Shown in pieces: positions 1,854-22,495 of a stretch of 64,000 nt of DNA. Position 1 is the first letter of the stretch; every line of letters begins with the position of its first letter. Position numbers and translations under genes: made by a program. The notes under the pieces were generated by a model, which did no database searches, was not told the DNA's origin, and saw only the letters and a list, made by a program, of their open reading frames with translations. The stretch spans positions 2,639 through 66,638 of the forward strand of contig JAAYKU010000256.1 of NCBI GenBank assembly GCA_012522275.1, given 5' to 3'. The DNA is from Smithella sp. GTDB taxonomy: Bacteria > Desulfobacterota > Syntrophia > Syntrophales > Smithellaceae.

Positions 1854-1910
1854 TTCTTTTATCCGTATGCGCGCCCGGCGCATCGTCTTCAAAGAGCTTT
1901 CTTTTGATAT

Positions 1911-1987
1911 TGGCACGCCCGGTAGGATTCGAACCTACGACCAACAGATTCGAAGTCTGCGACTCTATCCAGCTGAGCTACGGGCGC
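1911..1987 (-). tRNA. tRNA-Arg (anticodon TCG), encoded CCA
   Basis: Acceptor GCGCCCG/CGGGCGT, anticodon stem GCAGA/TCTGT with loop CTTCGAA, T-arm GTAGG-TTCGAAT-CCTAC. Length 77 nt. Confidence 0.9.
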
Positions 1988-2004
1988 GTAACTTTGTTTT
2001 AAAA

Positions 2005-2082
2005 TGGGGTGAGTGAAGGGGCTTGAACCCTCAACCTCCGGGGCCACAACCCGGCACTCTGACCAATTGAGCTACACCCACC
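2005..2082 (-). tRNA. tRNA-His (anticodon GTG) with encoded G-1 and CCA
   Basis: An extra 5' G is opposite C73. Anticodon stem CCGGG/CCCGG with loop TTGTGGC, T-arm GAGGG-TTCAAGC-CCCTT. Length 78 nt. Confidence 0.9.
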
Positions 2083-2092
2083 ATTATCGCCC

Positions 2093-2169
<77 letters not shown>

Positions 2170-5346: not shown

Positions 5347-7680
5347 ATGTCTGATTCATTGATTGTTGTGGAATCTCCAACAAAAGTTAAAACCATAAAA
5401 AAATTGCTCGGCAGGGATTTCAATGTGGTCGCTTCCATGGGTCACGTTAAAGACCTGCCCAAAAAAACGCTGGGTATTGATCTGGAAAAGGATTTCGAAC
5501 CCACTTATCAGGTCATCGACACCAAAAAGAAAACGATCGATGAATTGAAAAAGGCTGCCAAAACCGCCCAAAATATTTACCTGGCTCCCGACCCGGACCG
5601 CGAGGGCGAGGCAATTGCATGGCATATCGCCGAAATTATCGGCGGACGGAATAAGAATATCTATCGTGTTTTGTTCAATGACCTGACCAAAAGCACGGTC
5701 ATAGAGGCGATCAGCAATCCCCTGAAGCTCGATTTCGATAAGTACGAGGCGCAGCAGACCAGACGCATTCTGGATCGTCTGGTCGGCTATCAGATAAGCC
5801 CTGTTTTGTGGGACAAGGTCAAAAGAGGCCTGAGCGCCGGGCGCGTGCAGTCCGTCGCCGTACGGATGATCTGCGACAGAGAGGATGAAATCTCCCGTTT
5901 CGTCCCGGAAGAATACTGGAATCTGAAAGCTCTGTTCGAAGGCAGCCAGCCTCCGTCTTTTGAAGCAAAGCTCATAAAAGTGGACGGGAAAAAAGCCAAA
6001 GTCTCAAACGCCGACGAGGCCGGCCGGCTGACGGCGAAAATAAAAGAGGCAAAATTCCAGGTGGAAAAACTGGAGCGAAAGGAGATCAAACGCTCAGCGC
6101 TGCCGCCCTTCACCACCAGCAAGCTGCAGCAGGAGGCCTCACGGGCGCTGAGATTTTCCGCCAAGAAAACCATGAGCATCGCCCAGAAATTGTATGAGGG
6201 CATCGAGCTGGGAAAAGACGGCTCCGTCGGCCTGATTACCTATATGAGAACGGATTCGTACCGCATCGCAAACGAGGCGCTGCACGCGGTTCGTGACTAT
6301 ATAAAAACCAATTATTCTCCCGAATATCTGCCGCACAGACCGCATGTTTATAAAAACGCGCAAAAAACGCAAGACGCGCATGAGGCCATCCGCCCTTCCC
6401 TGATGGCTTACAGGCCTCAGGATATCAAGGGATTCCTGACGCCCGATCAGTTCAAGCTCTATCAGCTCATCTGGAACCGCTTTGTGGCCAGCCAGATGAA
6501 CCCGGCTGTTTTCGACCAGACGACCATCGATATCACCGGCGCCGGCTGCACTTTCCGTGCGCAGGGACAGGTAATGAAATTCCCCGGTTTCACCGTCGTC
6601 TATACGGAAAGCAAGGAGGAAAAAGAAGACGACAATGAAAACGGCACGGACAAACTGCTGCCGCAACTCAGTCAGCACGAGGCATTGAAGCTTTTGAAAC
6701 TCGACACGCAGCAGAAATTCACCCAGCCGCCGCCGCGCTATTCAGAGGCTTCTCTGGTGCGCGCACTCGAAGAAAACGGTATCGGCCGCCCCAGCACATA
6801 CGCGGCAATTCTCACCACTATCCAGGACCGCGAGTATGTTACCCTGGAAAAGGGAAAATTCTTTCCGACGGAGCTGGGTAAAATGGTCACTGAGCTTCTG
6901 GTGCACAGCTTTCCGAGCATTCTGGATCTGGCCTTTACGGCGGATATGGAAAACAAGCTCGACGCCATCGAAAGCGGGGAAACCAAGCGGGTTCAGACAT
7001 TGAAAGATTTTTATCGGCTGTTCTCGCGTGAGCTGGATAAGGCCAAAGATGAGATGCGCAATGTAAAGACAGAGGAAACACCAACGGATCTTGTCTGCGA
7101 GAAATGCTCCTCTCCGATGGTCATCAGATGGGGAAAAAACGGCCGGTTCTTATGCTGCACCAATTATCCTGAATGCAAAAATACCATGAATTTCACTCAT
7201 GACGAAAACGGGAGGGTAAAGCACGTGGAAGCTCAGACAACAGACATCAAATGCAGTAAATGCGGAAAAAATATGGTTGTCAAAGAGGGGCGCTTCGGAC
7301 AGTTTCTGGCCTGTTCCGGCTATCCTGACTGTAAAAACACGATGAATGCGGCGAAAAATGACAAGGGTGAAATCGTCGCGGATGAGACTCCGGCCACCGA
7401 CGAGGTGTGCGAATTGTGCGGCAAGCCCATGGCCGTCAAAAGGGGTCGCTACGGGCAGTTTCTGGGATGCACCGGTTACCCGGACTGTAGAAATATCAAA
7501 AAAATCGGGAAAGACGGCAAGGCGATAAAGCAGGAGGTCATCTTGTCGGATGAAGTCTGCGAGCTGTGTCAAAAGCCAATGGCCGTCAAGCGTGGCCGCT
7601 ACGGACAGTTTCTGGGATGCACCGGATATCCAAAGTGTAAAAACATCAAAAAGATACCCGGGAAAAAAGACGCGCAATGA
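5347..7680 (+). CDS. topA: DNA topoisomerase I with four C-terminal C4 zinc ribbons
   Basis: TOPRIM N-terminus (LIVVESPTKVKTIKKLLG...DPDREGEA) and active-site region ITYMRTDS. Four CxxC...CxxxxxC ribbons follow, and the last two are near-identical. Confidence 0.95.
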   Translation: MSDSLIVVESPTKVKTIKKLLGRDFNVVASMGHVKDLPKKTLGIDLEKDFEPTYQVIDTKKKTIDELKKAAKTAQNIYLAPDPDREGEAIAWHIAEIIGGRNKNIYRVLFNDLTKSTVIEAISNPLKLDFDKYEAQQTRRILDRLVGYQISPVLWDKVKRGLSAGRVQSVAVRMICDREDEISRFVPEEYWNLKALFEGSQPPSFEAKLIKVDGKKAKVSNADEAGRLTAKIKEAKFQVEKLERKEIKRSALPPFTTSKLQQEASRALRFSAKKTMSIAQKLYEGIELGKDGSVGLITYMRTDSYRIANEALHAVRDYIKTNYSPEYLPHRPHVYKNAQKTQDAHEAIRPSLMAYRPQDIKGFLTPDQFKLYQLIWNRFVASQMNPAVFDQTTIDITGAGCTFRAQGQVMKFPGFTVVYTESKEEKEDDNENGTDKLLPQLSQHEALKLLKLDTQQKFTQPPPRYSEASLVRALEENGIGRPSTYAAILTTIQDREYVTLEKGKFFPTELGKMVTELLVHSFPSILDLAFTADMENKLDAIESGETKRVQTLKDFYRLFSRELDKAKDEMRNVKTEETPTDLVCEKCSSPMVIRWGKNGRFLCCTNYPECKNTMNFTHDENGRVKHVEAQTTDIKCSKCGKNMVVKEGRFGQFLACSGYPDCKNTMNAAKNDKGEIVADETPATDEVCELCGKPMAVKRGRYGQFLGCTGYPDCRNIKKIGKDGKAIKQEVILSDEVCELCQKPMAVKRGRYGQFLGCTGYPKCKNIKKIPGKKDAQ

Positions 7681-9153: not shown

Positions 9154-9912
9154 TTATCCCTTCAGCGTCTTGTAATGAGAGTTGACTTTTTCAATATAAG
9201 ACAGTGTTTCACCAGGCAGGCGGTGCGGGTTTTTTTCCAGATTGCCCATGCCCCAGTTATAGGCCGCCAGCGCAGCATTCACATCTCCTTTGTAGCGGTT
9301 CAAAAGCATTTTCAGATACCTGGTGCCGGCCATGATGTTTTCCCTTGGGTCATAGGGGTTTTTGACCCCAAGCTCCCTGGCCGTATCCGGCATAAGCTGC
9401 ATCAGCCCCATTGCGCCCGCAGGCGATGTCGCCGACGGATTGAAGTCGCTTTCCGCCTTGATCACAGATTCAACGAGAGCGGAATCGACATCATGCGCGG
9501 CCGCCGCCTGTTTGATAATTTGAGAAAAATCATTGTGTGTTGCAGCCGGGGAATCTGCCTCAATGGCGGTAGAGCTTTTTGCGACCCCGCCGATGCCGGC
9601 CGCTATTGCCGGCGCACAGCCTGCCGACTGCCGCAATAACGTATAATCCGCCTTGTCCCCCGTGCTGAAAATGCTGTGGAAAAGGCGTGTATTCATCTGG
9701 ATTTGCAAGGCGCGCAAAAGCAGCGTCAACTGCCTTTCGGTCGGCGCCGCGGATGCTGATGATTTAAAAGCATCTTGCCTGGCCGCCAATGTGTCCCGTA
9801 AAACGTCTCCGAAACCGACATTTTCCCGAAGCCGGCCGGCGGAGGCTTCAGGTCCGGGTTCACCTGGAGTTTCAATACGCTGAACAGAGGGAAAATCAGG
9901 AATTATAATCAT
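9154..9912 (-). CDS. Lytic transglycosylase (SLT domain) with no recognisable signal peptide; possible flagellar peptidoglycan-remodelling enzyme
   Basis: The C-terminal SLT core is VIKAESDFNPSATSPAGAMGLMQLMPDTARELG...AYNWGMGN, with the catalytic Glu in the AES motif. The N-terminal 120 aa are hydrophilic with no hydrophobic h-region. GGAG lies 5 nt upstream of the ATG. Confidence 0.8.
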   Translation of the reverse strand: MIIIPDFPSVQRIETPGEPGPEASAGRLRENVGFGDVLRDTLAARQDAFKSSASAAPTERQLTLLLRALQIQMNTRLFHSIFSTGDKADYTLLRQSAGCAPAIAAGIGGVAKSSTAIEADSPAATHNDFSQIIKQAAAAHDVDSALVESVIKAESDFNPSATSPAGAMGLMQLMPDTARELGVKNPYDPRENIMAGTRYLKMLLNRYKGDVNAALAAYNWGMGNLEKNPHRLPGETLSYIEKVNSHYKTLKG

Positions 9913-9944
9913 ACTTTCTCCACCATAATGACAGAGAAATAAGA

Positions 9945-9960
9945 TTCAATTTATATGCCA
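9945..9960 (-). promoter_or_regulatory. Weak sigma-54-like promoter upstream of the SLT gene
   Basis: The minus-strand reading is TGGCAT-ATAAA-TTGAA. The -24 element is perfect and the spacing is correct, but the -12 GC is replaced by GA. Confidence 0.3.
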
Positions 9961-9970
9961 AGCATCTATC

Positions 9971-11455
9971 TTAAATAATTTTTATATAAGCGTCGACAAT
10001 GTCCGGGTCAAACTGTGTGCTTTTGTTGGCAATGAGCTCGGCAATGGCTTCTTCTTTGGGCATGGCGGGTCGGTAGGTACGGTTGTTGGTCATTGCGTCG
10101 AAGGCGTCGACGACGGCCATCACGCGCGCCAGCAGAGGGATCTCTTCCCCTTTCAGCCCCAGCGGATAGCCTTTTCCGTCCCATCGTTCATGGTGACACT
10201 GGACAATTTTCCTTTCATCAGCCAGTAAAGTGATCGGTTTCAAAATGTTTTCACCTATGGTGGGATGATTTTTAATAATCATGCATTCTTCTTCCGTAAG
10301 TTTTCCCTCTTTCAATAAAATACTGTCGGGCACGGCAATCTTGCCTACATCATGAAGAACACTGGCAATTCTGATGCTTTCGATTTCCTTTTGCGTACAG
10401 CCCAGGTTCTCGGCCAGACGGACCGCTTCGTCCGTGACGCGCCGGGAGTGCTCTTCTGTGTAGTGGTCGCGCGCCTGAATGGAAGAAATCAGGGAGCGAA
10501 GCGTATCCATGATGTTTAAATATATGCTTTCATAAAGTATTTTATTTTCCAGGTTTAAAGATGCGCGTTTGGTAAGGCTCAGAATATGGTGCAGGTCCTT
10601 TTTGTTGAAAGCCTCCCGGTTTTTCTTCCTGCGGATACTTAAAATGCCGAGGATGTTATTTCTGATCATCAACGGCGCGCAAATAAGAGATGGAGCCACC
10701 TCGGGGCGGTCATTGGCATTGATGAGCACGGCCTCCCTGCGCTCGACAACTTCGTTGAATATCATTTTCAGCCTGCGTTCCTGTGTGGCATTCTGATAAA
10801 GTCCGGAGGTTTTGCCACTGGTCACTTTATCATGAAATTCATTGTCCTGTTCGTCGAAAAGCATGATGGAGCAGACTTCGCCATCGACCAGCTTCAGGGC
10901 CAGATCGGCTATCTTCTGGAAGATGATTTCATTGTCCATCGGAGATTCTTCAATGGAGTCAAAAATATAGCTCTGTTTGGACAATGTTTCGGTTTTGTCA
11001 TCGAGTTTGAGCTCGGCAAGGATCTTTTCACAGGCCTCGGGCTTAAGAAGTTGCCTCCGACGCAGATGTATGTCAACTTTATACAAAAGATCGTCAATAT
11101 CGAACGGTTTCGTCAAAAAATCGACGGCGCCTTTTTTAATGGCGCTGACAGTCAGATCGGTCGTGGGATTTCCGGTAATCATGATCACGGCAACTGCGGG
11201 ATCGCGCTGTCTTACGGCGTGCAGCAGCTCCATGCCGCTCATGCCGGGCATCATGATGTCGCTGATGATGAGATCGAAGCTGTGGCTGTCGAGGATCCGA
11301 AGAGCCTCTTCCCCGGTTTCGGCTTCCTTTGTCTGATATCGAGGATTTTGTCCGAGTGCTTCGATAATGAGATTGCGGGTTGGCGAATAATCATCCACCA
11401 CCAGTATTTTTTTCGCTTCCTTACTGTGTCTGACTAGCCGGACTGCATGTGGCAC
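9971..11455 (-). CDS. Response regulator with REC-GAF-HD-GYP architecture (putative c-di-GMP phosphodiesterase, RpfG-like)
   Basis: REC domain (ILVVDDYSPT...LIISDIMMPGMSG...). The C-terminal HD-GYP motifs are HDVGKIAVPDSIL and HHERWDGKGYPLGL. A GTG start at 11455 is preceded by GGAG. Confidence 0.85.
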   Translation of the reverse strand: MPHAVRLVRHSKEAKKILVVDDYSPTRNLIIEALGQNPRYQTKEAETGEEALRILDSHSFDLIISDIMMPGMSGMELLHAVRQRDPAVAVIMITGNPTTDLTVSAIKKGAVDFLTKPFDIDDLLYKVDIHLRRRQLLKPEACEKILAELKLDDKTETLSKQSYIFDSIEESPMDNEIIFQKIADLALKLVDGEVCSIMLFDEQDNEFHDKVTSGKTSGLYQNATQERRLKMIFNEVVERREAVLINANDRPEVAPSLICAPLMIRNNILGILSIRRKKNREAFNKKDLHHILSLTKRASLNLENKILYESIYLNIMDTLRSLISSIQARDHYTEEHSRRVTDEAVRLAENLGCTQKEIESIRIASVLHDVGKIAVPDSILLKEGKLTEEECMIIKNHPTIGENILKPITLLADERKIVQCHHERWDGKGYPLGLKGEEIPLLARVMAVVDAFDAMTNNRTYRPAMPKEEAIAELIANKSTQFDPDIVDAYIKII

Positions 11456-11535
11456 TACCGATCTCCGTGATTATTTTAATTATTTATGAAAGAACTGGAA
11501 ATGCACGATTTTCTGGAAAAAAACGTGGAATCGGA

Positions 11536-11751
11536 CTATTGATTTTCATCTTTCAGAATAACATCGCGAAGACTGTAGCTTATTTTCTCCAACTCCTCCG
11601 CTTTGTTGGCTTCTTTCGAAGACAAAGTGACAATGTCCCTGGAACTTCCGGCAGACTCCCCTTCCCTGCGCGCAGGAGTCTGCACCTTGACTCTGCTTTG
11701 CCTGATGTAGGCATTTAAGATATTGTCTACCTGATAAGCAGTAATCGTCAT
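11536..11751 (-). CDS. Small hypothetical protein (~71 aa) with its own sigma-28 promoter, immediately downstream of csrA
   Basis: ORF MTITAYQVDNILNAYIRQSRVKVQTPARREGESAGSSRDIVTLSSKEANKAEELEKISYSLRDVILKDENQ. The ATG at 11751 is preceded by GGGGAAGAAG. The ORF-track start (11811, TTG) lies upstream of the predicted transcription start. I recognise no family. Confidence 0.5.
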   Translation of the reverse strand: MTITAYQVDNILNAYIRQSRVKVQTPARREGESAGSSRDIVTLSSKEANKAEELEKISYSLRDVILKDENQ

Positions 11752-11780
11752 CTTCTTCCCCGAATACCCTTCCATGAGTT

Positions 11781-11807
11781 TTATCGGTAAACGGGGAAAA
11801 AACTTTA
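11781..11807 (-). promoter_or_regulatory. Sigma-28 (FliA) promoter, near-consensus
   Basis: The minus-strand reading is TAAAGTTT-N11-ACCGATAA, against the consensus TAAAGTTT-N11-GCCGATAA (15 of 16 positions match). Confidence 0.75.
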
Positions 11808-11859
11808 GCAAAATGAGTTACAAAATTTAAAAGGGAGAAAATATTAAACTGAATTGATT

Positions 11860-12036
11860 TTATTCAGGAATTTTATTTTCCTCTTCTGGCGGGGAGGCAT
11901 CCTCCCTATGTACCGCCAGCTCGCGGGGCGCCTCCACGCCAACACGGACATATTTGCCTTTGACCTCGAGAATCGTAATTTTTATGTTTTCACCGACAGT
12001 AATGGCCTCTCCACTTTTTCTGGTTAAAATCAGCAT
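11860..12036 (-). CDS. csrA: Carbon storage regulator CsrA (58 aa; absent from the ORF track because it is under 60 aa)
   Basis: Hand translation: [58 protein letters not shown]. This matches the CsrA signature (MLILTRK...I.V......VR.G..AP....V.R.E). It lies directly after flgL, as in many flagellar loci. Confidence 0.9.
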
Positions 12037-12054
12037 TGTTCACCCGTTTCCATT

Positions 12055-12942
12055 TTAAAGATAACTCATTATCGTCATTTCACCGATTTTTGCCGCCATA
12101 CTGTAGGAGGCCTGCATAGCGATCTGCTTCATCAGGAAAGCGGTGATCAGAGACTCCATTTTGGCGTTTTCCACATCGGCAAGCATATTGGTGAGCTCAA
12201 GTTTCAGCTTGTCATGGTTGCTGCGCGTAAGCTCAAGAGAGCTCATTTTTGCCCCGGCTGACGTTTCCGCCTGCAAAACGCGACTCTCCAGGTTCCGCAG
12301 CAGGTCGATCTGTGCATTGATGGCATCCGTGTCGTTTGCCTCAAGCGCCACGCGAAGCGATGTCAGCGTGTCTAAAACATCCGTCCCGCCGAACGCGTCG
12401 GCGCCGGTGATGTTGTGTACAAAGGTATTGCCGTTTCCGACGAGCACCTTGAGCGGATCATCATTGCCCTGATACATGTAGGCGTCTGAGAACGTGTCAA
12501 AAACATAAGGGATGGTGTCCGTACGGGAGCCTGCAAAAATATAACTGTCCCCGTTTTTTGTGTTCATAAGTGTCATGGACTCGTCTATCAGAGATATGAC
12601 CGTCTGGGCCGAGATGGCCATTGTCTCGGGTGAACCCGTTCCCGCCTCTGATATCGCAATAGTGACCGCCTCTGCAATGATTTTTTTTACAGACGACAAT
12701 GCCGATGAGGTGATGGACAAAGCTATCTGAGCATCTGTAATATTGCTGTCGTACTGATTGATGGCATTGAGCGCCGTTCGCGAATCAAGAATTTTATTTG
12801 TGCCCACCGGGTCGTCCGAAGGGCGGTTGATCATTTTTTGTGTTGCGAGCTTTTCCATCAGATCGCTGTATTCACGCTGAATGTTCAGCATATTGGTGGT
12901 CAGCATGCTGAATTTTATATTTTCCGTCACTCTGTGAATCAT
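12055..12942 (-). CDS. flgL: Flagellar hook-filament junction protein FlgL (HAP3)
   Basis: Flagellin-like N-terminus (MIHRVTENIKFSMLTTNMLNIQ...INRPSDDPVGT) and a C-terminal helical segment. It sits after flgK. Confidence 0.85.
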   Translation of the reverse strand: MIHRVTENIKFSMLTTNMLNIQREYSDLMEKLATQKMINRPSDDPVGTNKILDSRTALNAINQYDSNITDAQIALSITSSALSSVKKIIAEAVTIAISEAGTGSPETMAISAQTVISLIDESMTLMNTKNGDSYIFAGSRTDTIPYVFDTFSDAYMYQGNDDPLKVLVGNGNTFVHNITGADAFGGTDVLDTLTSLRVALEANDTDAINAQIDLLRNLESRVLQAETSAGAKMSSLELTRSNHDKLKLELTNMLADVENAKMESLITAFLMKQIAMQASYSMAAKIGEMTIMSYL

Positions 12943-12964
12943 CTCATACGTCCTCTTTTTGTGT

Positions 12965-14356
12965 CTATCTTACCAGATTAAGCAACGTGTCGATCAATTC
13001 ATTGACTGTCGCGGTCATTCTACCTGCCGCTCCATAGGCCATCTGATATTTAATCAGATTCATCATTTCCTCGTCAAGGGATACTCCGGAGAGCTGCTCT
13101 CTTTGTTCAACCTGCTGGTTGTAAATCGTCGTTTCCCTGATCACCGCCTGCTTCGCGTCAACCGCGTCCCGGCCGATTTTCGCGATAAAAGAGTTGAAAT
13201 AACCGTCTATAGTCGTTCCAAGCACAATGTTTATTTCTGTTTTCAGCGTGGTAATGGCAGTGGCTTTGTTTCCATCCGCGTGGCTGCTTTCTGAAGCGGC
13301 GATTTTTCTCGTATCCGTCGATACTGCAATGTTGACGCTCATCGTCGCCGCTGCATTAGCAGCATCATAGATGAAAAACATCTCGCCTTGGATTCCATCC
13401 TGATCATAGCCTGAAGCGTGCAGTGTATTGACGCGATCCATCAGCGCCAGGGCGGTGGCATCGAGCATGCCGATATAGGAAGGAATAATATTATCCCTCA
13501 TTTCCAGGTATCCGCCCAGGCTTCCGCCTTTTATCCGGTCATTGAGCACTTGCGTCGGATTGTTTTCGAATACAACATCGTAAAAATTGTGGTTTGCTGT
13601 GTTTACCTGCACCTGCAGCTGCCAGCTGTTGAAGCCTTCAACCAGCGTTTTGCCCCCGTCGGGCATATAGATATAGATCGAACCATCCGATTTTTCAACG
13701 TAGTTTATATCGATTATCTTGCTGATTTCATTTAAAACCAACCCCCTCTGGTCCCGGACGGCATGGGCGGTCGAGCCTGCGTTTTCCGCACTGACGATTA
13801 GTTCATTGTAGCGGGCGACATCCTGCAAATAGCCGTTGAGTCTAGAAATCTCATCGGCAATACCGTCGTCTGCGTTTAACTGTATATCCACCAGGCTTTG
13901 CACCCGTAGATTGAACAGGCGAGAAAGATTTTCGCCGGTGGAAATGACCATATCTCTTTTTGATTTACTCAGAGGGTCAACAGAGAGGTTTCCCCAGGCA
14001 TTCAGAAAATCGGCAATTGCATCATTTATTCCGCCGCCGGCATTCTCATTGAGAATCGCCTCTATTCTCGAGAGGATGTCTTCCTGAGCGGTAAATTTGG
14101 AAAGGGATGACTGTTGTGAAATCATCTGCGATTCCAAAAACTTATCAAAAATGCGCTCTACATTGGAAATGCGTACGCCTATCTGTTCGCGACCGGACTG
14201 AGGGTCATTGGAGCCTACCGCCTCAAAAAGAGGCCTCAGGCGGGAGTAGCCGGGTGTGTTCACATTGGCGATATTACTGCCTGTGACATTGATTGCCGTC
14301 AGATTGCTCAAAAGCGCCTGTTGCGCCGTATATAAAACTTTTCCGATATCCGCCAT
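12965..14356 (-). CDS. flgK: Flagellar hook-associated protein FlgK (HAP1)
   Basis: N-terminal axial-protein motif LTAINVTGSNIANVNTPGYSR and C-terminal SGVSLDEEMMNLIKYQMAYGAAGRM. Confidence 0.9.
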   Translation of the reverse strand: MADIGKVLYTAQQALLSNLTAINVTGSNIANVNTPGYSRLRPLFEAVGSNDPQSGREQIGVRISNVERIFDKFLESQMISQQSSLSKFTAQEDILSRIEAILNENAGGGINDAIADFLNAWGNLSVDPLSKSKRDMVISTGENLSRLFNLRVQSLVDIQLNADDGIADEISRLNGYLQDVARYNELIVSAENAGSTAHAVRDQRGLVLNEISKIIDINYVEKSDGSIYIYMPDGGKTLVEGFNSWQLQVQVNTANHNFYDVVFENNPTQVLNDRIKGGSLGGYLEMRDNIIPSYIGMLDATALALMDRVNTLHASGYDQDGIQGEMFFIYDAANAAATMSVNIAVSTDTRKIAASESSHADGNKATAITTLKTEINIVLGTTIDGYFNSFIAKIGRDAVDAKQAVIRETTIYNQQVEQREQLSGVSLDEEMMNLIKYQMAYGAAGRMTATVNELIDTLLNLVR

Positions 14357-14359
14357 CTG

Positions 14360-14911
14360 TCAGCCCTCCGTGCTAAGCAGCCTGCCGTTGTTTTGCATGA
14401 TACCGATTTTCCCGTTGCCCAGATAAATTCCCGATCTTTCAAGGAGCGAGGTCAGAAATTCAAGTGATGCTTTAACATTATAGATTGATTTATCTAAAAT
14501 ATAACTGTTTTCTTTATTTATCAATTCAATCTCCGCACTGATCTGAAGAAGATCGTTTCTCAAATTTGCGATGGTCTGTCTTTTTCCGGAGCCGGCATAT
14601 ACGGCAAGTGACGCCAGACTTGCCCCTTCCTCGTTTATATCGAGATTACGGGAGATTTTCTTTAACAAGTTGATGCGCGCCTCCTGTGATATCCGGACTT
14701 TGAGGATGATATTTTCCTTGGCCGCATTGCTTTTGTTGATTTCGGCAAATGCAGACGATTTGACCAGCATGTCTTTTTCGGAGATTAAAAAGCTTTTAAG
14801 CTCCTGATAAACTGACCTTTCACTGGTTAATACGTCTATCAGCGAGTCAAACAATTCATCATTGACGGATTCTTCCAGGTGGTTGCTCAAGTGCATATTA
14901 TGCTCCAACAT
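14360..14911 (-). CDS. flgN: FlgN-like export chaperone for FlgK/FlgL
   Basis: An all-helical ~183-aa protein (LIDVLTSERSVYQELKSFLISEKDMLVK...) lying between flgM and flgK. The ATG at 14911 is preceded by AAGGA. The ORF-track N-terminal extension to 15031 is Pro/Arg-rich and unlikely to be real. Confidence 0.6.
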   Translation of the reverse strand: MLEHNMHLSNHLEESVNDELFDSLIDVLTSERSVYQELKSFLISEKDMLVKSSAFAEINKSNAAKENIILKVRISQEARINLLKKISRNLDINEEGASLASLAVYAGSGKRQTIANLRNDLLQISAEIELINKENSYILDKSIYNVKASLEFLTSLLERSGIYLGNGKIGIMQNNGRLLSTEG

Positions 14912-15056
14912 AGCAATATCCTTATCGGTTGGGGTTGGGGCAAAACGACGTGAGCTGCGAGGCGCGTCGGCGGGCGGGGCCTGAAGTTTCTCAAGCCCCG
15001 TCCGCAGCAGACGCGTTAGAGGGGGAAGCACTAAGGGGAAGACTTAGTTCTGTTCA

Positions 15057-15365
15057 TCAGGCAAACAGATCGATAATTGATTCTCCCACCATTTTGTCGG
15101 CAATCTGCTGTCCGCTCACGTTGTATGTGCCCTTATCTACCTGATCTTTAATCTCGCGAACTTTTTCCTCGCGTACATCAGGCAACTTTGACACTTCAAC
15201 TTTAGCTTTCTGAATATCCCTTGCCATGGTGGAAAGATCAACTTTTTCACTTGGTTTCACGGACGCAGCAGCCGGCTGCCTGTCAGCCGCACCGGCAGCA
15301 TTTTCGCTGCGCTGGTACTGCTGGATATACTGCGCGTTTACGTCTTTAATATCAGACACTTTCAT
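15057..15365 (-). CDS. flgM: Anti-sigma-28 factor FlgM
   Basis: The C-terminal FlgM signature is VREEKVREIKDQVDKGTYNVSGQQIADKMV. A strong RBS (AAGGAGAGG) and a sigma-28 promoter lie upstream. Confidence 0.85.
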   Translation of the reverse strand: MKVSDIKDVNAQYIQQYQRSENAAGAADRQPAAASVKPSEKVDLSTMARDIQKAKVEVSKLPDVREEKVREIKDQVDKGTYNVSGQQIADKMVGESIIDLFA

Positions 15366-15398
15366 GAAAACCTCTCCTTTTGTTGAATCTTACACCAC

Positions 15399-15426
15399 CT
15401 ATCGGCAAAATCAAGATATTACTTTA
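15399..15426 (-). promoter_or_regulatory. Sigma-28 promoter of the flgM-flgN-flgK-flgL-csrA unit
   Basis: The minus-strand reading is TAAAGTAA-N12-GCCGATAG, about 30 nt upstream of the flgM ATG. Confidence 0.65.
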
Positions 15427-15433
15427 ATTTTTT

Positions 15434-15769
15434 TCACCTCCCGGGGGAATTTATTTTGGTGAACTGTTCAAACAACATTTTTTGCAGCCCCAGACCATCG
15501 CCTTCGTTGGAAATATTTTCCGCCAATTTCTGATCTATGATCATCATATAACTGTCCTTGCCGAAGTTCATGCCGGTTTTAGCTTCCGGAACGGTCTTGC
15601 GCATTGACTTGATCAGTTCGTATGTGAAAATTGCCTCAAAGTCGGCACACGCCTTTTTAATTTTTTTGAGCTCCTCAGGAGTGTGCCTGCCGGAGACAGG
15701 AGTCGTTTTCCCTGTCTGCGCCTGCTTTGCAACATTGGGTAAAATCTGCATTGCTTTGATGCTGTCCAT
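15434..15769 (-). CDS. flgJ: Single-domain FlgJ (rod-binding domain only, no muramidase)
   Basis: Rod-binding motif KKACADFEAIFTYELIKSMRKT...MMIIDQKLAENIS. It is 111 aa and follows flgI. Confidence 0.8.
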   Translation of the reverse strand: MDSIKAMQILPNVAKQAQTGKTTPVSGRHTPEELKKIKKACADFEAIFTYELIKSMRKTVPEAKTGMNFGKDSYMMIIDQKLAENISNEGDGLGLQKMLFEQFTKINSPGR

Positions 15770-15779
15770 AAAAGATCCG

Positions 15780-16994
15780 TCAAATAATCTGAATATCGGC
15801 CTGCAGGGCGCCTGCCGCCTTGATGGCCTGCAAAATCGTAATTAAATCGCGCGGAGACACGCCGATGGCATTGAGCGCGCGGACCACTTCGAATATTGTC
15901 ACAGACTGAGGCAACAGCATCAGCTGTCTATCCTTTTCTTCCGAAACGCTCAGTGTCGTTTCCGTCGTTACAACCGTCTGACCGCCCGGCGCCATCATCG
16001 CACCGGCGGGCATTTGCGCACCGGGCTGATCCTCGGCGCGGGGTTCCGGCCCTCGTCTCTGTCCGGGCGCCAGCGGCAGAGGCTGAGACACTTTTGTCTC
16101 TTCTTTGATCTGGATGCTTAAATTTCCGTGGGCAACCGCCACCGTGGAGATGCGTACATTTTCACCCATAACCACCGTGCCTGTTTTTTCGTTCAGGATA
16201 ACCACGGCGGGGCTGTCCACTTCCACGTCAAGGGATTCTATATGGTAAACGAGCTGTGACAAAGAGCCGTCAAAATCATTCTTCGCTTTGACACTCACGG
16301 AAAAGGCGTCTAGCTGCCTGGCCTCGGCAAACGGCAATGAGCTGTTGATGGAGGCGGCCATGCGGGTGGCGGTGGTAAAATCGGGCTGCTGCAGATTGAT
16401 CATTAACGTCTTTTTCGCGTCAAAATCATAGGCTAGTTCCTTTTCCACCGTGGCTCCGCTGGATATTCTGCCGACCGTCGTATGATTTTTGGCCGCACCC
16501 CCGCCCGCGCCGCCGGCGGAATAGCCGCCCAGCGAGATCGGACCTTGCGCTACCGCATATATCTCGCCGTCCGCACCGCGCAAAGCAGTCATCAGCAGCG
16601 TCCCTCCCTGCAGGCTTTTGGCAGAACCTACGGAAGAAACCGCCACGTCGATTTTCGACCCGTTTTTGGCAAAGGGAGGGAGAATACCTGTTACCATGAC
16701 GGCCGCGATATTATCGGCCTTCAAAGCGGACGTCTTGTCTTTCATGGTCAGACCCTGACGGTTCATGATGTTTGCCAGGGAGGCGGCCGTGAAAAGGTTT
16801 TTCGCCAGGTCGTCGCCCGTGCCGGCCAGGCCGACTACCACACCGTAGCCTATGAGCTGGTTGTCGCGGACCCCGCCGATGGTGGCGATATCCTTGATTC
16901 TGGCGGCGAAGCAAATACCGGTCGATAAAAACAGGAGCACAAGCGCCGCAATCAAAGTTTTCATCATTTTTCTTGTCATGTTCATCTCCGTCAT
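15780..16994 (-). CDS. flgI: Flagellar P-ring protein FlgI
   Basis: A signal peptide is followed by RIKDIATIGGVRDNQLIGYGVVVGLAGTGD. The C-terminus is LNAIGVSPRDLITILQAIKAAGALQADIQII. Confidence 0.95.
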   Translation of the reverse strand: MTEMNMTRKMMKTLIAALVLLFLSTGICFAARIKDIATIGGVRDNQLIGYGVVVGLAGTGDDLAKNLFTAASLANIMNRQGLTMKDKTSALKADNIAAVMVTGILPPFAKNGSKIDVAVSSVGSAKSLQGGTLLMTALRGADGEIYAVAQGPISLGGYSAGGAGGGAAKNHTTVGRISSGATVEKELAYDFDAKKTLMINLQQPDFTTATRMAASINSSLPFAEARQLDAFSVSVKAKNDFDGSLSQLVYHIESLDVEVDSPAVVILNEKTGTVVMGENVRISTVAVAHGNLSIQIKEETKVSQPLPLAPGQRRGPEPRAEDQPGAQMPAGAMMAPGGQTVVTTETTLSVSEEKDRQLMLLPQSVTIFEVVRALNAIGVSPRDLITILQAIKAAGALQADIQII

Positions 16995-17003
16995 GTTGCC
17001 GTT

Positions 17004-17699
17004 TTAAAAGGGCCAGACCCAATCTACGATGCGCGTTGCCCAGCCTGGTCTCATTTTGTCGTTGATTACTCCCGTTCCCGTAAAAATTATATGCGCGTCT
17101 GAAATATATTGAGACGCGATGGTGTTTTCCGCGGTGATATCCTGCGGCCTGATGATCCCGCTGATAATCAGATACTGGTCTTCGGCGTTGATCGTCACCT
17201 GCCTGCGCCCCTCGATCATCAGGTCGCCGTTATCCATCACACGAATGACGCGCGCGCTGATTCTGGCCACCAATGTATTGTTGCGGCTTGTGTCTCCCTG
17301 CCCTTTCATGCTGTTGGTGTGTTTGCCGCCAATGGCAATCTCGCCGCCCAGGTTGGCGTTTTTACCGATAATATAATTGTCGAGCCCCAAAAAAGCGTCG
17401 ATATTCGCACTGGTCGAGGCGTTACGGCTGGTGCCGGTGCTTGCCTTGTTGCCGCCCGAGGCCGCTTCCGCAACAAGAATTGTCACGATATCATTAACAT
17501 ACCTCGCCTTTTTATCTGTGAAAATCATGCTTTTGTCGCTTTCGCCGCGCCAGATGGCGCCCGGCGCCGCCTCGGGCGCAGGCTGAAGCGGCACGGCAAC
17601 AACATCCGGCCTTGCAACGGTTTTCGTCTGCCAGCAGCCTGCGGTGATCAACACGGCAAGGGCCGTAAAAATCAAAATGGTCGATTTGTTTATTTTCAT
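17004..17699 (-). CDS. flgH: Flagellar L-ring lipoprotein FlgH
   Basis: Lipobox LITAGC, then [20 protein letters not shown] and [32 protein letters not shown]. Confidence 0.95.
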
Positions 17700-17714
17700 A
17701 AATGCCTCTTTTCC

Positions 17715-18437
17715 TTAAAAATCCACCTGGACCCTGGACGGGCCTACGACCCGCGCGTAAATGATTTTATTGGAATTAAGATTGCGGACTTTGATCACTG
17801 TGTCGTCCGCCCCGTCTTCTTCCGCCAGGCCGTTCATGACTATTCTCATCAGTCCGTTGTCCGCAACGACCTGTACCATCTTTCCTTTTCTGACTGTCTT
17901 GACTTCCCTGAGCATATTGCGCGTAATCTGGGCATGCGGCCTGAGTGATACGGCAATGTTTTTGCCTGTGACCTCATCGACGCAGGAGATGGAATTTGCC
18001 GGGATGCGGCGCACCCATTTCTTCTGCACGGTCACGTCTTCATCCGTTATGATCGAGCTCTTCCCGATGGCCTTGAGACTGACGACAAAGTCGCGCAGCA
18101 CTTCGATGCGCACACGGATCGTTTCCTCCTTCAGGAAAACACCGTTTTTGAAGATGCGCACATTGAATGACGTATCTCCGATATACTCCTCACCCGGCCT
18201 GCCTGTTATCTGCCAGGTCAGACCGCCCGGATCGTTTTCCAATGACGGGATACGCGACAGAAGCTCGATGCGCACACAGTCTTCATGGTGGAGTGAATTT
18301 TCCTCGATGTATTCTTTTAAATGCTGCACAAGCTGATTTTCGTCACTGGGCGCGGCACAGGCGTACACAGCGGCCCGTTCAACGGCCATAAAAACAAGCA
18401 GGAAAACCAGCAGATATTTCAGGCATGCTTTTGTCAT
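17715..18437 (-). CDS. flgA: P-ring assembly chaperone FlgA
   Basis: Signal peptide plus a C-terminal SAF/FlgA domain (RKGKMVQVVADNGLMRIVMNGLAEEDGADDTVIKVRNLNSNKIIYARV). It lies between flgG and flgH. Confidence 0.8.
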   Translation of the reverse strand: MTKACLKYLLVFLLVFMAVERAAVYACAAPSDENQLVQHLKEYIEENSLHHEDCVRIELLSRIPSLENDPGGLTWQITGRPGEEYIGDTSFNVRIFKNGVFLKEETIRVRIEVLRDFVVSLKAIGKSSIITDEDVTVQKKWVRRIPANSISCVDEVTGKNIAVSLRPHAQITRNMLREVKTVRKGKMVQVVADNGLMRIVMNGLAEEDGADDTVIKVRNLNSNKIIYARVVGPSRVQVDF

Positions 18438-18440
18438 CTT

Positions 18441-19226
18441 TTACGACCTCTTCAGACCCGCGATGATACCCAGCATGGAGTCCGCCGTCTGTATTGCTTT
18501 GGAGTTTATTTCATAGGCGCGCTGCCCGACAATCATCCGCACCATTTCATCGATGACATTGACATTGGACATTTCCAGGAAATTCTGCGAGATGGTTCCG
18601 ATGCCGTCCTCGCCGGGGTTGCCGGTAATCGGCTCGCCGGAGGCCTCTGATTTCGCGTAGAGGTTCCTGCCTGTCGCGGTAAGGCCCGCCGGATTGGGAA
18701 AAATCGCCAGCTCCAGCCTGCCGGTGGCCAGGGGGTTTCCCTCCTGATCCGCCGCGGTCCAGGTTCCGCCCGTGTCCACCGTGAAGGAAACTGTTCCCGT
18801 CGGTACGGTTATGTTCGGCAACAGCGGAAGGCCTTCCGAGTTTACAATCAGCCCGTCACGATTGATTTTGAAATTTCCCGCCCGCCCGTAGTAAGTTTCG
18901 CCGTTGTCGTCGAACTGGAAAAAACCGTCTTTTTCGATCGCCCAGTCAAATTGATTGCCGGTTTGCTGATAATCGCCCTGCAGGAACATTCTCTGCGTGG
19001 AAATGGGCTTGACGCCCATGCCGATTTCGATGCCGACGGGCAATTGATTTCCCTGCGAAGTCTCCGCCCCTGATTTGGCATAAATCTGGTACATCAGATC
19101 CTGAAAATCGGCCCGCGATTTCTTGAATCCAACCGTGTTGACGTTTGCCAGGTTGTTGGCCACGATGTCCTGCTCGATCTGCTGCGCCACCATACCGGTG
19201 GCGGCCGTCCACAGTGATCTCATCAT
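18441..19226 (-). CDS. flgG: Distal rod protein FlgG
   Basis: N-terminus MMRSLWTAATGMVAQQ...NNLANVNTVGFKKSR and C-terminus LEMSNVNVIDEMVRMIVGQRAYEINSKAIQTADSML. Confidence 0.95.
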   Translation of the reverse strand: MMRSLWTAATGMVAQQIEQDIVANNLANVNTVGFKKSRADFQDLMYQIYAKSGAETSQGNQLPVGIEIGMGVKPISTQRMFLQGDYQQTGNQFDWAIEKDGFFQFDDNGETYYGRAGNFKINRDGLIVNSEGLPLLPNITVPTGTVSFTVDTGGTWTAADQEGNPLATGRLELAIFPNPAGLTATGRNLYAKSEASGEPITGNPGEDGIGTISQNFLEMSNVNVIDEMVRMIVGQRAYEINSKAIQTADSMLGIIAGLKRS

Positions 19227-19239
19227 AATGTTTGTCCCC

Positions 19240-19953
19240 CTATACTAATTTCCCGATTCTGCTTGTCGAAATCTTGTCCATATCCTGCAGCGTCAAAATA
19301 ATTTTCTGATACGTTTCGAAAGTGCGCTGGATATTGATCATATCCGTCATTTCGCGCACCGCGTTGACGTTGGACATCTCCAGGTAACCACTGTTGACAC
19401 TGAAGCCGGCTGTATTTTTCGGTGCAGCATCTCCACGGTCGATATATCTGCCGTCGGCTGAACGAACCAGCGCCTGCGGGTTGGCAAAGGCCGTCACTTT
19501 GATTTTTCCGACCGGAACTTCGTCCACATAAATCATCCCTTCCTGGTTGATCTTTATTGACTCGCCGTCGATGACGAGCTTGCCTGTATCCCCCAGAACA
19601 TGGTCGCCCTGCGGCGTGACGAGCTCCATGTTCTTGTTGAGCATGAAACTTCCTTCCCGCGTATAGGCTCTTCCCTGCTTTGTTTGAACAGTAAAAAATC
19701 CCTCTCCTTCAATGGCCAGATCAAAGATATTGCCGGTTGTCTGCAATGTCCCCTGAGAAAAATCGATCGCGGATACAGTATGACCCAGCTCAGGAGAGGC
19801 GCCCTGATGTATATTTCTGCCTTTCATGGCATAATACAGGTGTTCCGCCTTGAACCCGGTGGTAGATGAGTTGGCGACATTGTTGGTTACAAAATCAAGC
19901 TCGAGCAGTTTCCTCGCTCCGGCCAGCCCGATATCAGTCACGTCATAACGCAT
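19240..19953 (-). CDS. flgF: Proximal rod protein FlgF
   Basis: Axial-protein N- and C-terminal motifs (NNVANSSTTGFKAE; LEMSNVNAVREMTDMINIQRTFETYQK). The ATG at 19953 is preceded by GGAAAGGAGAGG. The ORF-track extension to 20007 contains the sigma-54 promoter. Confidence 0.9.
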   Translation of the reverse strand: MRYDVTDIGLAGARKLLELDFVTNNVANSSTTGFKAEHLYYAMKGRNIHQGASPELGHTVSAIDFSQGTLQTTGNIFDLAIEGEGFFTVQTKQGRAYTREGSFMLNKNMELVTPQGDHVLGDTGKLVIDGESIKINQEGMIYVDEVPVGKIKVTAFANPQALVRSADGRYIDRGDAAPKNTAGFSVNSGYLEMSNVNAVREMTDMINIQRTFETYQKIILTLQDMDKISTSRIGKLV

Positions 19954-19979
19954 TTGCCTCTCCTTTCCATGAGCTAGTT

Positions 19980-19995
19980 TGCAAGCGATGTGCCA
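19980..19995 (-). promoter_or_regulatory. Sigma-54 promoter of the flgF-flgG-flgA-flgH-flgI-flgJ unit
   Basis: The minus-strand reading TGGCAC-ATCGC-TTGCA is a perfect -24/-12 match, 27 nt upstream of the flgF ATG. Confidence 0.8.
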
Positions 19996-20213
19996 GATAA
20001 CAGGCATGAAGCCGGACCACGGACCGCCGGCGACTTCTTGCGTCTTATCTTATTGATATTACAGATATTATAAAGGCATTTTCGGATAGGATCTTCAAAT
20101 TGGCTCACTTTGCCGGGTCTTTAAAATCCGGTAAGCATCTTTGCCCGTACGGCAATTTTTTACCCCGGGGAATATTTTTCCTCTTTAATGACGCAATGGC
20201 TTTACGGCTATTT

Positions 20214-20504
20214 TTATGAACGCTGATTCTCGTTGAGGGAATAGACAAAGGCGAGTATTTCGGCAACTGCCCGGTAGAGTTCAACCGGAATTTCCGTCCC
20301 CACCTTGAGTTTGCTCAATAACGCGGCAAGCTGCGGGTCGCTTTTAACCGGAATATCGCTTTCCAGGGCAAGCCGGATTATCCTTTCGGCAATTTCCCCG
20401 CGGCCTGAGGCGACAACGGCAGGGGCTGTATTTTTTTCAGCATCGTATTTTACGGCAGCCGCTGTTTTTACCAGCTGCTCAATATTATCTTGCTTCTTTC
20501 TCAT
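20214..20504 (-). CDS. Free-standing FlhB C-terminal (FlhB-CC) homologue, FlhX/YlqH-like
   Basis: The 96-aa protein aligns with the post-NPTH part of this window's own FlhB. AAAVKYDAEKNTAPAVVASGRGEIAERIIRLALESDIPVKSDPQLAALL...ELYRAVAEILAFVY aligns with [49 protein letters not shown]...SLYKAVAEVLAFVY. It has no NPTH motif and no TM segment. Confidence 0.8.
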   Translation of the reverse strand: MRKKQDNIEQLVKTAAAVKYDAEKNTAPAVVASGRGEIAERIIRLALESDIPVKSDPQLAALLSKLKVGTEIPVELYRAVAEILAFVYSLNENQRS

Positions 20505-20513: not shown

Positions 20514-21662
20514 TTAAACAAAATTATTAACAATACCTGACGAACCTAGTAATATTTCATCAATATATTCCATTTTTTTCCGGCTTAGTCCGGTTGCCTT
20601 GAAACAATCGAACCTGTCTACGGCATAGCCGATTGCACACAGGGCGTCTTTGAGTTTTTGCGCTGTCTCACCAATCAGTTGCACACTTTTTTCTGTCTCG
20701 CACTGAATCAGGCAGTTCATCCGGCCTGCCTTGAGCGAGACATCCACCGCAATATGGCCGAGAATGTCCATATCGATAAAAATAACGACGCGACAGAAAG
20801 AAAATTTGTTTTCTCCGCGGGTATTTTTGTCGTCTGGAAATATAAAAATATCCGCCTGACGCAAAACCTGGCCAAGTGCCAGCGGCACCTGCAGATAAAG
20901 TCCGGACTCATTTTGCTGATAGGCAATACTCGCCGCCTGCCGACCCTCTATGCTGCCGAGCGCCCCGGTAACGAAAGATGATAAAGCTGCCAGCCTGGCC
21001 GTCTCCTGCCGGCCTTGTTTCCCCTGCCTTGCCTCTTGCAAAGCTGCTTCCAATTTTAACAAAAGAGCCTTGAGGTTGTCTTTGGGAAGATCTTCAGAAG
21101 GCCTGATGGCTGAACCGGCCGCCGCCGCTGAATCACTTTCCGGTAAAAGGCCGCATCTGGAAAGAAAATCCTTTACGAACATGGAATTGTTTTTTGTACG
21201 GGATGAAAAAATGAGGCCGCCGAAAATCGCCAGCAGAGCATCCGCCTCTTGGGGAGGGAAACCGGGCAGCCCGGTCGTCTTCAGAAGGGATGAAAATTCT
21301 GAAAGTCTTGCCAGGAGCTGCACAAAAGAATCAGGGTTGACGCGCCACTGCAGTAACTGTCCGTTTATTTTAGCTGCCATCTGCTGAGGCGCGGCGTCGA
21401 GCACATTGAACACGATCTGCGGTTGTACGCTTTGCACCCGGACACGGATTTGATCCCCGGCATTGAGCAAAACGGAGCCGGTTGCCCTGAAAGTGGCGTT
21501 TTTGGCGGACATCAGATAGCGGTCGGCGGCAATTTTTTCGATAACGCTGACGGTAATGGTTTCACCCGCCTTAAACTGCGACAGGGGCAGGTTCGTTTTG
21601 GAGGTTACGGAAACTGTTTCCGGCCTGGCGGGCATACCGGGTATTACTGAATTCACTGCCAT
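20514..21662 (-). CDS. FliK-like protein (second copy) with a C-terminal Flg_hook-type domain
   Basis: The C-terminal segment MDILGHIAVDVSLKAGRMNCLIQCETEKSVQLIGETAQKLKDALCAIGYAVDRFDC aligns with the bona fide FliK segment PSLGNLEMDVMVQNGTVRVLLIAENKEVHQTLAANMESLRGSLQNQGLVIERCEV. The N-terminal 250 aa are unrelated. Confidence 0.55.
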   Translation of the reverse strand: MAVNSVIPGMPARPETVSVTSKTNLPLSQFKAGETITVSVIEKIAADRYLMSAKNATFRATGSVLLNAGDQIRVRVQSVQPQIVFNVLDAAPQQMAAKINGQLLQWRVNPDSFVQLLARLSEFSSLLKTTGLPGFPPQEADALLAIFGGLIFSSRTKNNSMFVKDFLSRCGLLPESDSAAAAGSAIRPSEDLPKDNLKALLLKLEAALQEARQGKQGRQETARLAALSSFVTGALGSIEGRQAASIAYQQNESGLYLQVPLALGQVLRQADIFIFPDDKNTRGENKFSFCRVVIFIDMDILGHIAVDVSLKAGRMNCLIQCETEKSVQLIGETAQKLKDALCAIGYAVDRFDCFKATGLSRKKMEYIDEILLGSSGIVNNFV

Positions 21663-22129
21663 CAGGATGTCTCATTTTTTGTCCTGTAGAGGTCGATAAT
21701 CAAGCCTATTTCCGCCTCGGTGAAACCCGTCGCTTCAGCCGCCTGGGCCTGTGAGCATCCTCCTTTGATCATTTCCGCCACGCGGGCGTATTTATCGTCC
21801 ACATTTGATACCAAAGAGAGCTTTTTTTCATCAGAGGCTTCATTTTCTCCATTTTTCTCCAAGAGGGCCTTGACTCTTTTTTCCTTGAGATCGAGTTCGA
21901 GGGCGATTTCCTTGAGGGCAAGACGACTTTTTTCCAGTGCCTCGAGAAAACGGTCGGATGAGGCCTGAGACTCGGCCATAACCGTCTTAAAATCGTTAAT
22001 CATCTCCTTGTGGGACTGGTTCAGGGGGTTTTTCAGATTGGTATTGACACGCCACAGAAGGAAAATAACCGCCAGCAGCAAAACAAGATCGATAATCAGC
22101 TGCAAAATGACGGGGCTGAAGATGTCCAT
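21662..22129 (-). CDS. Membrane-anchored coiled-coil protein with a small C-terminal helix-turn-helix-like module (resembles DUF2802 flagellar-locus proteins)
   Basis: One N-terminal TM segment (ILQLIIDLVLLLAVIFLLW) and a charged coiled-coil middle. The C-terminus is YARVAEMIKGGCSQAQAAEATGFTEAEIGLIIDLY. It is translationally coupled on both sides. Confidence 0.35.
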   Translation of the reverse strand: MDIFSPVILQLIIDLVLLLAVIFLLWRVNTNLKNPLNQSHKEMINDFKTVMAESQASSDRFLEALEKSRLALKEIALELDLKEKRVKALLEKNGENEASDEKKLSLVSNVDDKYARVAEMIKGGCSQAQAAEATGFTEAEIGLIIDLYRTKNETS

Positions 22130-22130
22130 G

Positions 22131-22439: not shown

Positions 22440-22495
22440 CTTAACCGCCCCGTCTCTTCATGAAATTCCCCCTCTGAAAGAGACTCTCTATCTGA

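Follow-up and report, generated by a model that had tools for sequence, protein, structure and literature searches.

What is the role of a 71-amino-acid (aa) protein that is encoded directly after csrA, behind a late flagellar promoter of its own, at a position where fliW would usually be expected? The question arises from a 64-kb stretch of contig JAAYKU010000256.1 of Smithella sp. (hereafter the window; coordinates are window positions unless another locus is named), in which the genes around csrA and this open reading frame (ORF), here called ORF71, all lie on the minus strand. Read 5' to 3', their order is flgA, flgH, flgI, a flgJ-like gene, flgM, flgN, flgK, flgL, csrA, ORF71, a gene for a response regulator with receiver (REC), GAF, and HD-GYP domains, and a gene for an SLT-domain lytic transglycosylase (Table 1). 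An earlier reading made from the DNA letters alone (the sequence-only reading) described a csrA gene ending the flgM-flgN-flgK-flgL unit, a near-consensus sigma-28 motif behind it, and a small ORF that it could not assign to FlgM, FlaG, FliS, FliT, or FliW, and it suggested that the product might be a partner of CsrA. Its description of the locus agrees with our results. Pfam and NCBIfam matches together with the gene order make csrA the last gene of the flgM-flgN-flgK-flgL late operon (73.0 bits against PRK01712, for which the cutoff is 73), the coordinates and a consensus scan recover both the promoter motif and the ORF behind it, and a related contig with the order flgL-csrA-fliW shows that ORF71 does stand in the fliW position. 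The suggested partnership fared differently: the constant partner of ORF71 is the downstream REC-GAF-HD-GYP gene, not CsrA.

ORF71 is a real, conserved, and experimentally uncharacterised late flagellar gene. Its start codon is preceded by a GGGGAAG ribosome-binding site. A protein search returned 50 homologues, nearly all of them 64-73 aa long, and a genome scan gave a set of at least 80 loci or genomes (the short-form loci) from Smithellaceae, other Syntrophales, and some metagenome-assembled genomes of Desulfobacterales. The homologues share a common start at MTI[TS], keep both start and stop positions, and have 12 residues that are invariant down to 44% identity. Against its nearest relatives, ORF71 had a ratio of nonsynonymous to synonymous substitution rates (dN/dS) of 0.10-0.17, and its synonymous sites were almost saturated. 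These values bear out the view that a genuine gene lies behind the 'hypothetical protein' of the public annotation. ORF71 had no match in Pfam, and searching the PDB by sequence with the profiles of both the short forms and the long forms of its family (see below) returned nothing below E = 0.1. The AlphaFold2 monomer model (mean predicted local distance difference test score, pLDDT, 61.6) shows a confident helix over residues 5-21, whereas confidence is low for the rest of the chain. Outside this N-terminal helix the modelled protein is probably disordered for the most part, and a single helix with disorder around it would fit a protein that folds on binding.

The promoter is conserved along with the gene. 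Upstream of ORF71, TAAAGTTT-N11-ACCGATAA agrees with the sigma-28 (FliA) consensus TAAAGTTT-N11-GCCGATAA at 15 of 16 positions, 52 nucleotides (nt) past the csrA stop and 29 nt ahead of the ATG, and transcription is predicted to start near 11774. No other sequence in the 64 kb matches the consensus with one mismatch or fewer, and shuffled sequences averaged 0.56 matches at up to three mismatches. The sequence-only reading had proposed that ORF71 has a late-class promoter of its own, and the relatives agree: a motif of at least 13/16 was present upstream of the start in 76 of the 79 homologous loci searched (within 120 nt), at a distance of 27-88 nt from the start (median about 35, mostly 27-45). 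Random 120-nt windows from the same loci reached an equal score in about 0-2% of trials, with a maximum of 4.5% at one locus. A weight matrix built from 68 distinct family sites, with the invariant core T-AAGTT...CCGAT, ranked the ORF71 site top in the window at 26.3 bits. The only other site above 15 bits in the 64 kb lies upstream of flgM, and because flgM is a classical sigma-28 target, this match serves as an internal positive control for the matrix. It follows that flgM-flgN-flgK-flgL-csrA is probably driven by a late-class promoter as well. We expect both promoters to be read by the fliA-like sigma factor that the window encodes.

Conservation of the gene order points to the regulator rather than to csrA. 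Of the 72 loci with downstream sequence long enough to be read, 65 have, on the same strand and no more than 184 nt behind ORF71, an ORF with a receiver domain and an HHExxDGxGYP motif, our criterion for the regulator. Among the seven exceptions, several have this regulator gene in a frameshifted form. The csrA gene, by contrast, adjoins ORF71 in only about 16 of the 80 loci, those of the closest Smithellaceae relatives. The ORF71-regulator pair was found in three flagellar contexts: after flgL-csrA in the window and its relatives, after fliH-fliI-fliL-x-DUF2802 in locus L081, and divergent from a block of flagellar sigma-54 activator, kinase, and flgB-flgC-fliE-fliF genes in L085. With the promoter kept in all three, the pair therefore moves as a unit. 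In about 35 related loci the SLT gene, too, comes after the pair. ORF71 and the regulator gene are usually 60-180 nt apart; no terminator was predicted in the 80-nt gap of the window, and the two genes are probably co-transcribed. Overlaps of 4-8 nt between them in some loci are an artefact of taking the longest ORF and were not used as evidence of translational coupling.

The domains of the regulator are well supported, with Pfam matches to Response_reg (E = 3.4e-29), GAF, and HD_5 (E = 2.3e-41). Among solved structures, its closest relative is 4mcw, deposited under the title 'metal dependent phosphohydrolase' (E = 1.7e-44 over GAF and HD-GYP), and it also matches 4r8z, deposited as a 'cyclic di-GMP phosphodiesterase' (E = 1.5e-29). 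The translation retains the motifs HHERWDGKGYP and LHDVGK and the receiver Asp in ISDIMMPG. The regulator is predicted to be a phosphodiesterase acting on cyclic diguanosine monophosphate (c-di-GMP).

A trio of window genes may also bear on this regulator. They encode a FliL-like protein, a protein of about 256 aa that matches HisKA weakly, and a DUF2802/DUF6115 protein. In L081, the ORF71-regulator pair stands directly after the same conserved trio (5707-7627), and a similar HisKA-like protein of 241 aa is encoded near a family member in L087. The HisKA-like protein of the trio may be a phosphodonor for the HD-GYP regulator.

The sequence-only reading had left ORF71 unassigned; profile comparisons connect it with the 'DVU0524 family FlgM-associated protein' of NCBIfam (NF041863), a model of a 64-residue N-terminal domain with a curated cutoff of 40 bits. 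ORF71 itself scored 23.2 bits against this model (E = 6.6e-5, profile positions 1-57 of 64), which is under the cutoff. Searching 1.8 billion representative proteins with a profile of the ORF71 clade gave 99 matches, the weak tail of which scored 44-81 bits on NF041863. When the ORF71 group was aligned with canonical DVU0524 members, hhalign returned 98.8% (E = 5e-17, 65 columns), and reciprocal searches with hidden Markov models (HMMs) agreed: the canonical N-domain HMM found ORF71 at E = 9e-12, and the ORF71 HMM found a long form at E = 6e-9. Judged by these profiles, ORF71 is a distant, divergent member of the DVU0524 family that consists of the N-domain only. We found no paper on this family, which has its name from NCBIfam.

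The canonical, long-form members that we compared with ORF71 came from 80 metagenomic loci (L091-L170), and a long-form gene is also present in L082 (6001-6441). The canonical proteins are mostly 124-158 aa long (median about 140), with three ORFs of 87-99 aa. They share with ORF71 the motif M-x-I-[ST]-x-Y-Q-[VI]-x-N-[VI]-[LI]-x-x-Y, a variable linker, and the motif D-x-V-x-[LI]-S ... EK[IV], as well as a sigma-28 promoter about 20-40 nt ahead of the start (for the long forms, at least 13/16 at 18-35 nt in 74 of 80 loci) and the place of first gene in a two-gene unit with a regulator. The promoter as a family trait was found in this analysis and lies outside the NCBI definition of NF041863. 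Length and partner set the two groups apart. The C-terminal half of the long forms is predicted to form an alpha-beta3-alpha domain with some likeness to FlaG, which ORF71 lacks at 71 aa, and the gene that comes directly after a long form is flgM (73 of 76 readable loci, mostly within 24 nt), whereas ORF71 is followed by the REC-GAF-HD-GYP gene. The flgM gene of the window lies 3.3 kb upstream of ORF71 and is preceded by the flgJ-like gene, not by a family member. ORF71 thus appears, from these comparisons, to have been re-partnered from flgM to the HD-GYP regulator. P0136, a protein of 76 aa whose 43.9 bits on NF041863 exceed the cutoff, is likewise followed by genes for a REC protein and a REC-GAF-HD-GYP protein, and the link with HD-GYP proteins is therefore not confined to one clade.

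These results incline us, with some reserve, to read ORF71 as the first gene of a conserved sigma-28-dependent, two-gene late-flagellar operon that it forms with the HD-GYP gene and that would lower c-di-GMP after completion of the hook-basal body. FlgM is exported once the hook-basal body is complete, and its export releases sigma-28 (the FlgM/FliA checkpoint). In the mechanism that we propose, completion of the hook-basal body would lead to FlgM export in the Smithella cell as well, FliA would then fire the ORF71 promoter, and transcription from it would cover both ORF71 and the regulator gene. The regulator would hydrolyse c-di-GMP, and the finished flagellum would not be held back by c-di-GMP effectors. 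Phosphorylation of the REC domain and binding of a ligand by the GAF domain would gate the regulator further. A candidate effector is the PilZ-domain protein encoded beside motAB, which could act in a YcgR-like way at the stator or motor. For ORF71 itself, we favour the role of a small regulatory partner of the co-encoded HD-GYP regulator; we infer that it would be produced together with the regulator, bind it, and act on it. The N-domain of the DVU0524 family would, on this proposal, be a small binding module that ties whichever regulator is encoded next to it to the state of flagellar assembly, namely FlgM for the long forms and the HD-GYP protein for ORF71.

This proposed operon has a parallel in the FliA-pdeH-YcgR circuit of E. 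coli and Salmonella, where pdeH (yhjH), the gene for a class III c-di-GMP phosphodiesterase whose activity prevents braking of the motor, is reportedly FliA-dependent. The likeness lies in a c-di-GMP-degrading enzyme, in our case a predicted one, under sigma-28 control within the flagellar regulon, and in the PilZ-domain gene beside motAB in the window. Motor output in E. coli is set by the phosphodiesterase PdeH together with YcgR, a PilZ protein (PMC9303241). The Smithella enzyme differs in that it is of the HD-GYP and not the EAL type and carries REC and GAF sensor domains, and in that a small conserved protein is co-encoded upstream of it, whereas pdeH has no such partner. If our reading is true, the syntrophic Desulfobacterota (Smithella, Syntrophales) would couple sigma-28-dependent late expression to the turnover of c-di-GMP through an HD-GYP response regulator with a dedicated small partner instead of the E. 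coli components, and an entirely unstudied family of small proteins would have a testable role in the flagellar hierarchy.

Several points weigh against the operon reading. The ORF71 promoter and the co-transcription of ORF71 with the regulator gene are both predictions from sequence. The gap between the two genes holds a weak sigma-70-like site (TTTCCA-17-TAAAAT, 9/12, at 11473-11501 on the minus strand), and the HD-GYP regulator may also use a promoter of its own. Since csrA is followed by a weak hairpin only, read-through from the flgM operon into ORF71 is possible. A few homologues (L012, L026, L063, and P0049) have no regulator downstream. Some solved HD-GYP enzymes cleave cyclic GMP-AMP (cGAMP), not c-di-GMP (5z7c). 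The monomer model of ORF71 is of low confidence throughout most of its length. Finally, FlgM and HD-GYP proteins are unrelated, so the domain shared by the long forms and ORF71 may bind something else.

This last point leads to the alternative that we take most seriously, in which ORF71 is an autonomous late factor at the sigma-28/FlgM checkpoint or at the export gate, and the HD-GYP gene merely shares its transcript without contact between the products. We regard this as possible, yet doubtful. The same 64-aa domain precedes flgM in nearly all readable long-form loci, and its surface would then probably bind a partner common to both arrangements. Each locus has one family member, apart from L077 with two divergent short-form copies (9497-9700 on the minus strand and 9962-10204 on the plus strand), and a few short forms stand without a regulator. 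The mostly disordered model of ORF71 is also in keeping with FlgM, which is known to be disordered. However, the ORF71-regulator pair has stayed intact through at least three independent relocations, which is more than the sharing of a promoter would need, and the N-terminus of ORF71 is highly conserved and predicted to be helical, unlike typical export signals.

The long forms provide a further argument for an autonomous factor through their weakly FlaG-like C-terminus, and FlaG is known to limit filament length. There are three such signals, none of them significant alone: Pfam FlaG matches at E = 2.2e-4, Foldseek ranks 6jsx (H. pylori FlaG) first at E = 0.15, and hhalign finds a local similarity to a true FlaG. 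The FlaG of C. jejuni is an export substrate of the flagellar secretion system and a competitor of FliS-flagellin at FlhA, and an interaction of FlaG with sigma-28 has been reported in vitro (PMC11536152). The likeness to FlaG (PF03646) belongs to the long forms only, by way of the alpha-beta3-alpha domain, apart from the fact that both are late flagellar genes. ORF71 lacks that domain and has no Pfam FlaG match, and the true FlaG encoded on contig L089 has no counterpart of the family N-domain, with the aligned stretch confined to the C-terminal part. The FlaG-like features, below significance as they are, are thus missing from the very protein whose role is in question.

A comparison with FlgM (PF04316) gave a similar mixture. 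Both FlgM and ORF71 are small, sigma-28-dependent, and predicted to be largely disordered, their short motifs come in a similar order (..YQ.., a linker, and V-[DT]-L-S), and the long-form relatives of ORF71 stand directly upstream of flgM. ORF71 differs in lacking the C-terminal sigma-28-binding helices, and the window has a bona fide flgM elsewhere. We also considered ORF71 as a FlgM homologue and rejected this: despite the similar motif order, there was no Pfam FlgM match at E <= 1, and hhalign against a local FlgM alignment returned 0.3%. A variant of the operon reading would nevertheless use ORF71 in a FlgM-like way, as a c-di-GMP checkpoint in which a disordered late substrate or export-gate ligand binds the co-encoded HD-GYP regulator and inhibits or activates it. 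In this variant the level of c-di-GMP would read out flagellar export, and the N-domain would be a portable 'assembly-state' adaptor that some lineages have joined to FlgM and others to a c-di-GMP enzyme. We think this variant unlikely.

The partnership with CsrA proposed by the sequence-only reading, in which ORF71 would be a CsrA antagonist or partner that replaces FliW in this lineage, is very improbable in the light of the wider set of loci. The absence of FliW from the window, on which it was founded, is well supported. Pfam scans of about 36 window proteins, which matched flagellar, chemotaxis, and housekeeping families, tblastn of the window with a Desulfobacterota FliW, and a FliW HMM built from 77 proteins and applied to all six reading frames of the window (best E = 1.4) found no FliW, and the same HMM found none in the 80 short-form loci with their 10-kb flanks. 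Among all fetched loci, it matched in the two positive-control loci only. ORF71 also takes the place immediately behind csrA where the flgKL operon ends, exactly where fliW is found in L089 (locus positions 9768-20504), a Syntrophales contig that shares the flgA-H-I-J-flgM-flgN-flgK-flgL-csrA synteny of the window and then continues with fliW (167 aa). Beyond fliW in L089 are a convergent flaG-fliT-fliS-fliD-fliC-fliC cluster and then glycosyltransferase and TPR genes. Past these, 10 kb away, the contig has a 73-aa homologue of ORF71 that starts MTITSYQVDSVIRAYTKQYK and is preceded by the sigma-28 motif TCAAGTTT-N11-GCCGATAG; the equivalent stretch of the sister contig L090 runs on into the HD-GYP regulator. 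A single genome thus has both a short form and csrA-fliW. Long forms likewise occur beside csrA-fliW (in L082 and in 10 of the 80 canonical loci), and the idea that ORF71 anti-correlates with fliW is contradicted by both observations.

The positions of ORF71 in the other loci argue in the same direction. In about 60 of the 80 loci there is no csrA near ORF71, in roughly 50 there is neither flgL nor csrA, and in some Smithella loci flgL (L007, L009, L012, L026, and L029) or flgN leads to ORF71 with no csrA between. The simplest explanation for csrA adjoining ORF71 in Smithella is that the block of about 10 kb from fliW to the TPR genes was lost or moved elsewhere, which fits the window, where Pfam scans of about 36 proteins found no flagellin, fliD, fliS, or flaG gene. 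ORF71 and FliW (PF02623) themselves have no sequence similarity by Pfam or the FliW HMM; ORF71 is half the size of FliW, and it is helical or disordered in its model where FliW is a beta-barrel. GGA motifs resembling CsrA sites in the ORF71 leader are present in the window but are not kept in the ribosome-binding-site regions of relatives, and the idea was dropped.

The csrA gene of this lineage deserves attention in its own right. In the Smithellaceae (L001-L027), CsrA has 58-60 aa and stops just behind VHR(Q/E)E, with a tail rich in Pro and Glu. In an alignment that included E. coli CsrA, these proteins are without the C-terminal alpha-helix and extension of the FliW-linked CsrAs of L089 (78 aa) and L082 (80 aa). 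The residues of CsrA that contact FliW (V51/I52 and N55/N56) lie within that helix in C. jejuni and Geobacillus (PMC7829508). Smithella CsrA thus seems, from the alignment, to be devoid of the FliW-binding helix, and some other control of CsrA would be needed, which speaks for the partnership proposed by the sequence-only reading. These results point to a lineage that has lost fliW and the FliW-binding helix alike and has kept a minimal CsrA.

Finally, ORF71 could be a chance ORF, or a leader that tunes HD-GYP expression without encoding a functional protein, as its shortness, its place before a regulator gene, its lack of a Pfam match, and its low-confidence model might suggest, but the invariant residues, the low dN/dS, the homology to one domain of the 140-aa proteins from other phyla-level lineages, the ribosome-binding site of its own, and a usual gap to the regulator that is too long for simple translational coupling leave this hardly credible.

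Table 1. Positions of the genes and sites in the 64-kb Smithella sp. window that are referred to in the text.
Feature	Position	Strand	Basis or remark
Four-tRNA gene cluster	1781-2169	-	
SLT-domain lytic transglycosylase	9154-9912	-	Pfam; after the HD-GYP gene
REC-GAF-HD-GYP response regulator, 494 aa	9971-11455	-	Pfam Response_reg, GAF, HD_5
ORF71, 71 aa, NLN39960.1 'hypothetical protein [Smithella sp.]'	ATG 11751 to stop 11536	-	
Predicted sigma-28 (FliA)-type promoter of ORF71	11781-11807	-	-35 at 11807-11800, 11-nt spacer, -10 at 11788-11781
csrA, 58 aa, NLN39961.1 'carbon storage regulator'	11860-12036	-	Pfam CsrA, E = 1.5e-20
flgL	12055-12942	-	Pfam Flagellin_N; synteny in relatives
flgK	12965-14356	-	Pfam scan; synteny in relatives
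flgN	14360-15031	-	Pfam FlgN; synteny in relatives
flgM	15057-15365	-	Pfam FlgM; synteny in relatives
Second sigma-28-type site, TAAAGTAA-N12-GCCGATAG	15399-15426	-	34 nt upstream of flgM; 18.5 bits
flgJ-like gene, rod-binding domain only	15434-15769	-	Pfam
Trio: FliL-like protein, ~256-aa protein with weak HisKA match, DUF2802/DUF6115 protein	21662-23972	-	
fliA-like sigma factor	23982-24866	-	sigma-70 regions 2, 3, 4; downstream of flhF/flhG-like ORFs
PilZ-domain protein	51126-51725	+	Pfam; directly upstream of motA
motA	51738-52598	+	Pfam
motB	52636-53466	+	Pfam

The remaining features of the window are of minor bearing on ORF71. Rfam matched nothing but the four tRNAs; near the locus it found neither a CsrB-like RNA nor any other. 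The gene for FlhA occupies 26807-28888. The flgJ-like gene encodes a rod-binding domain only, and given this, the separate SLT lytic transglycosylase may be the flagellum-specific peptidoglycan hydrolase.

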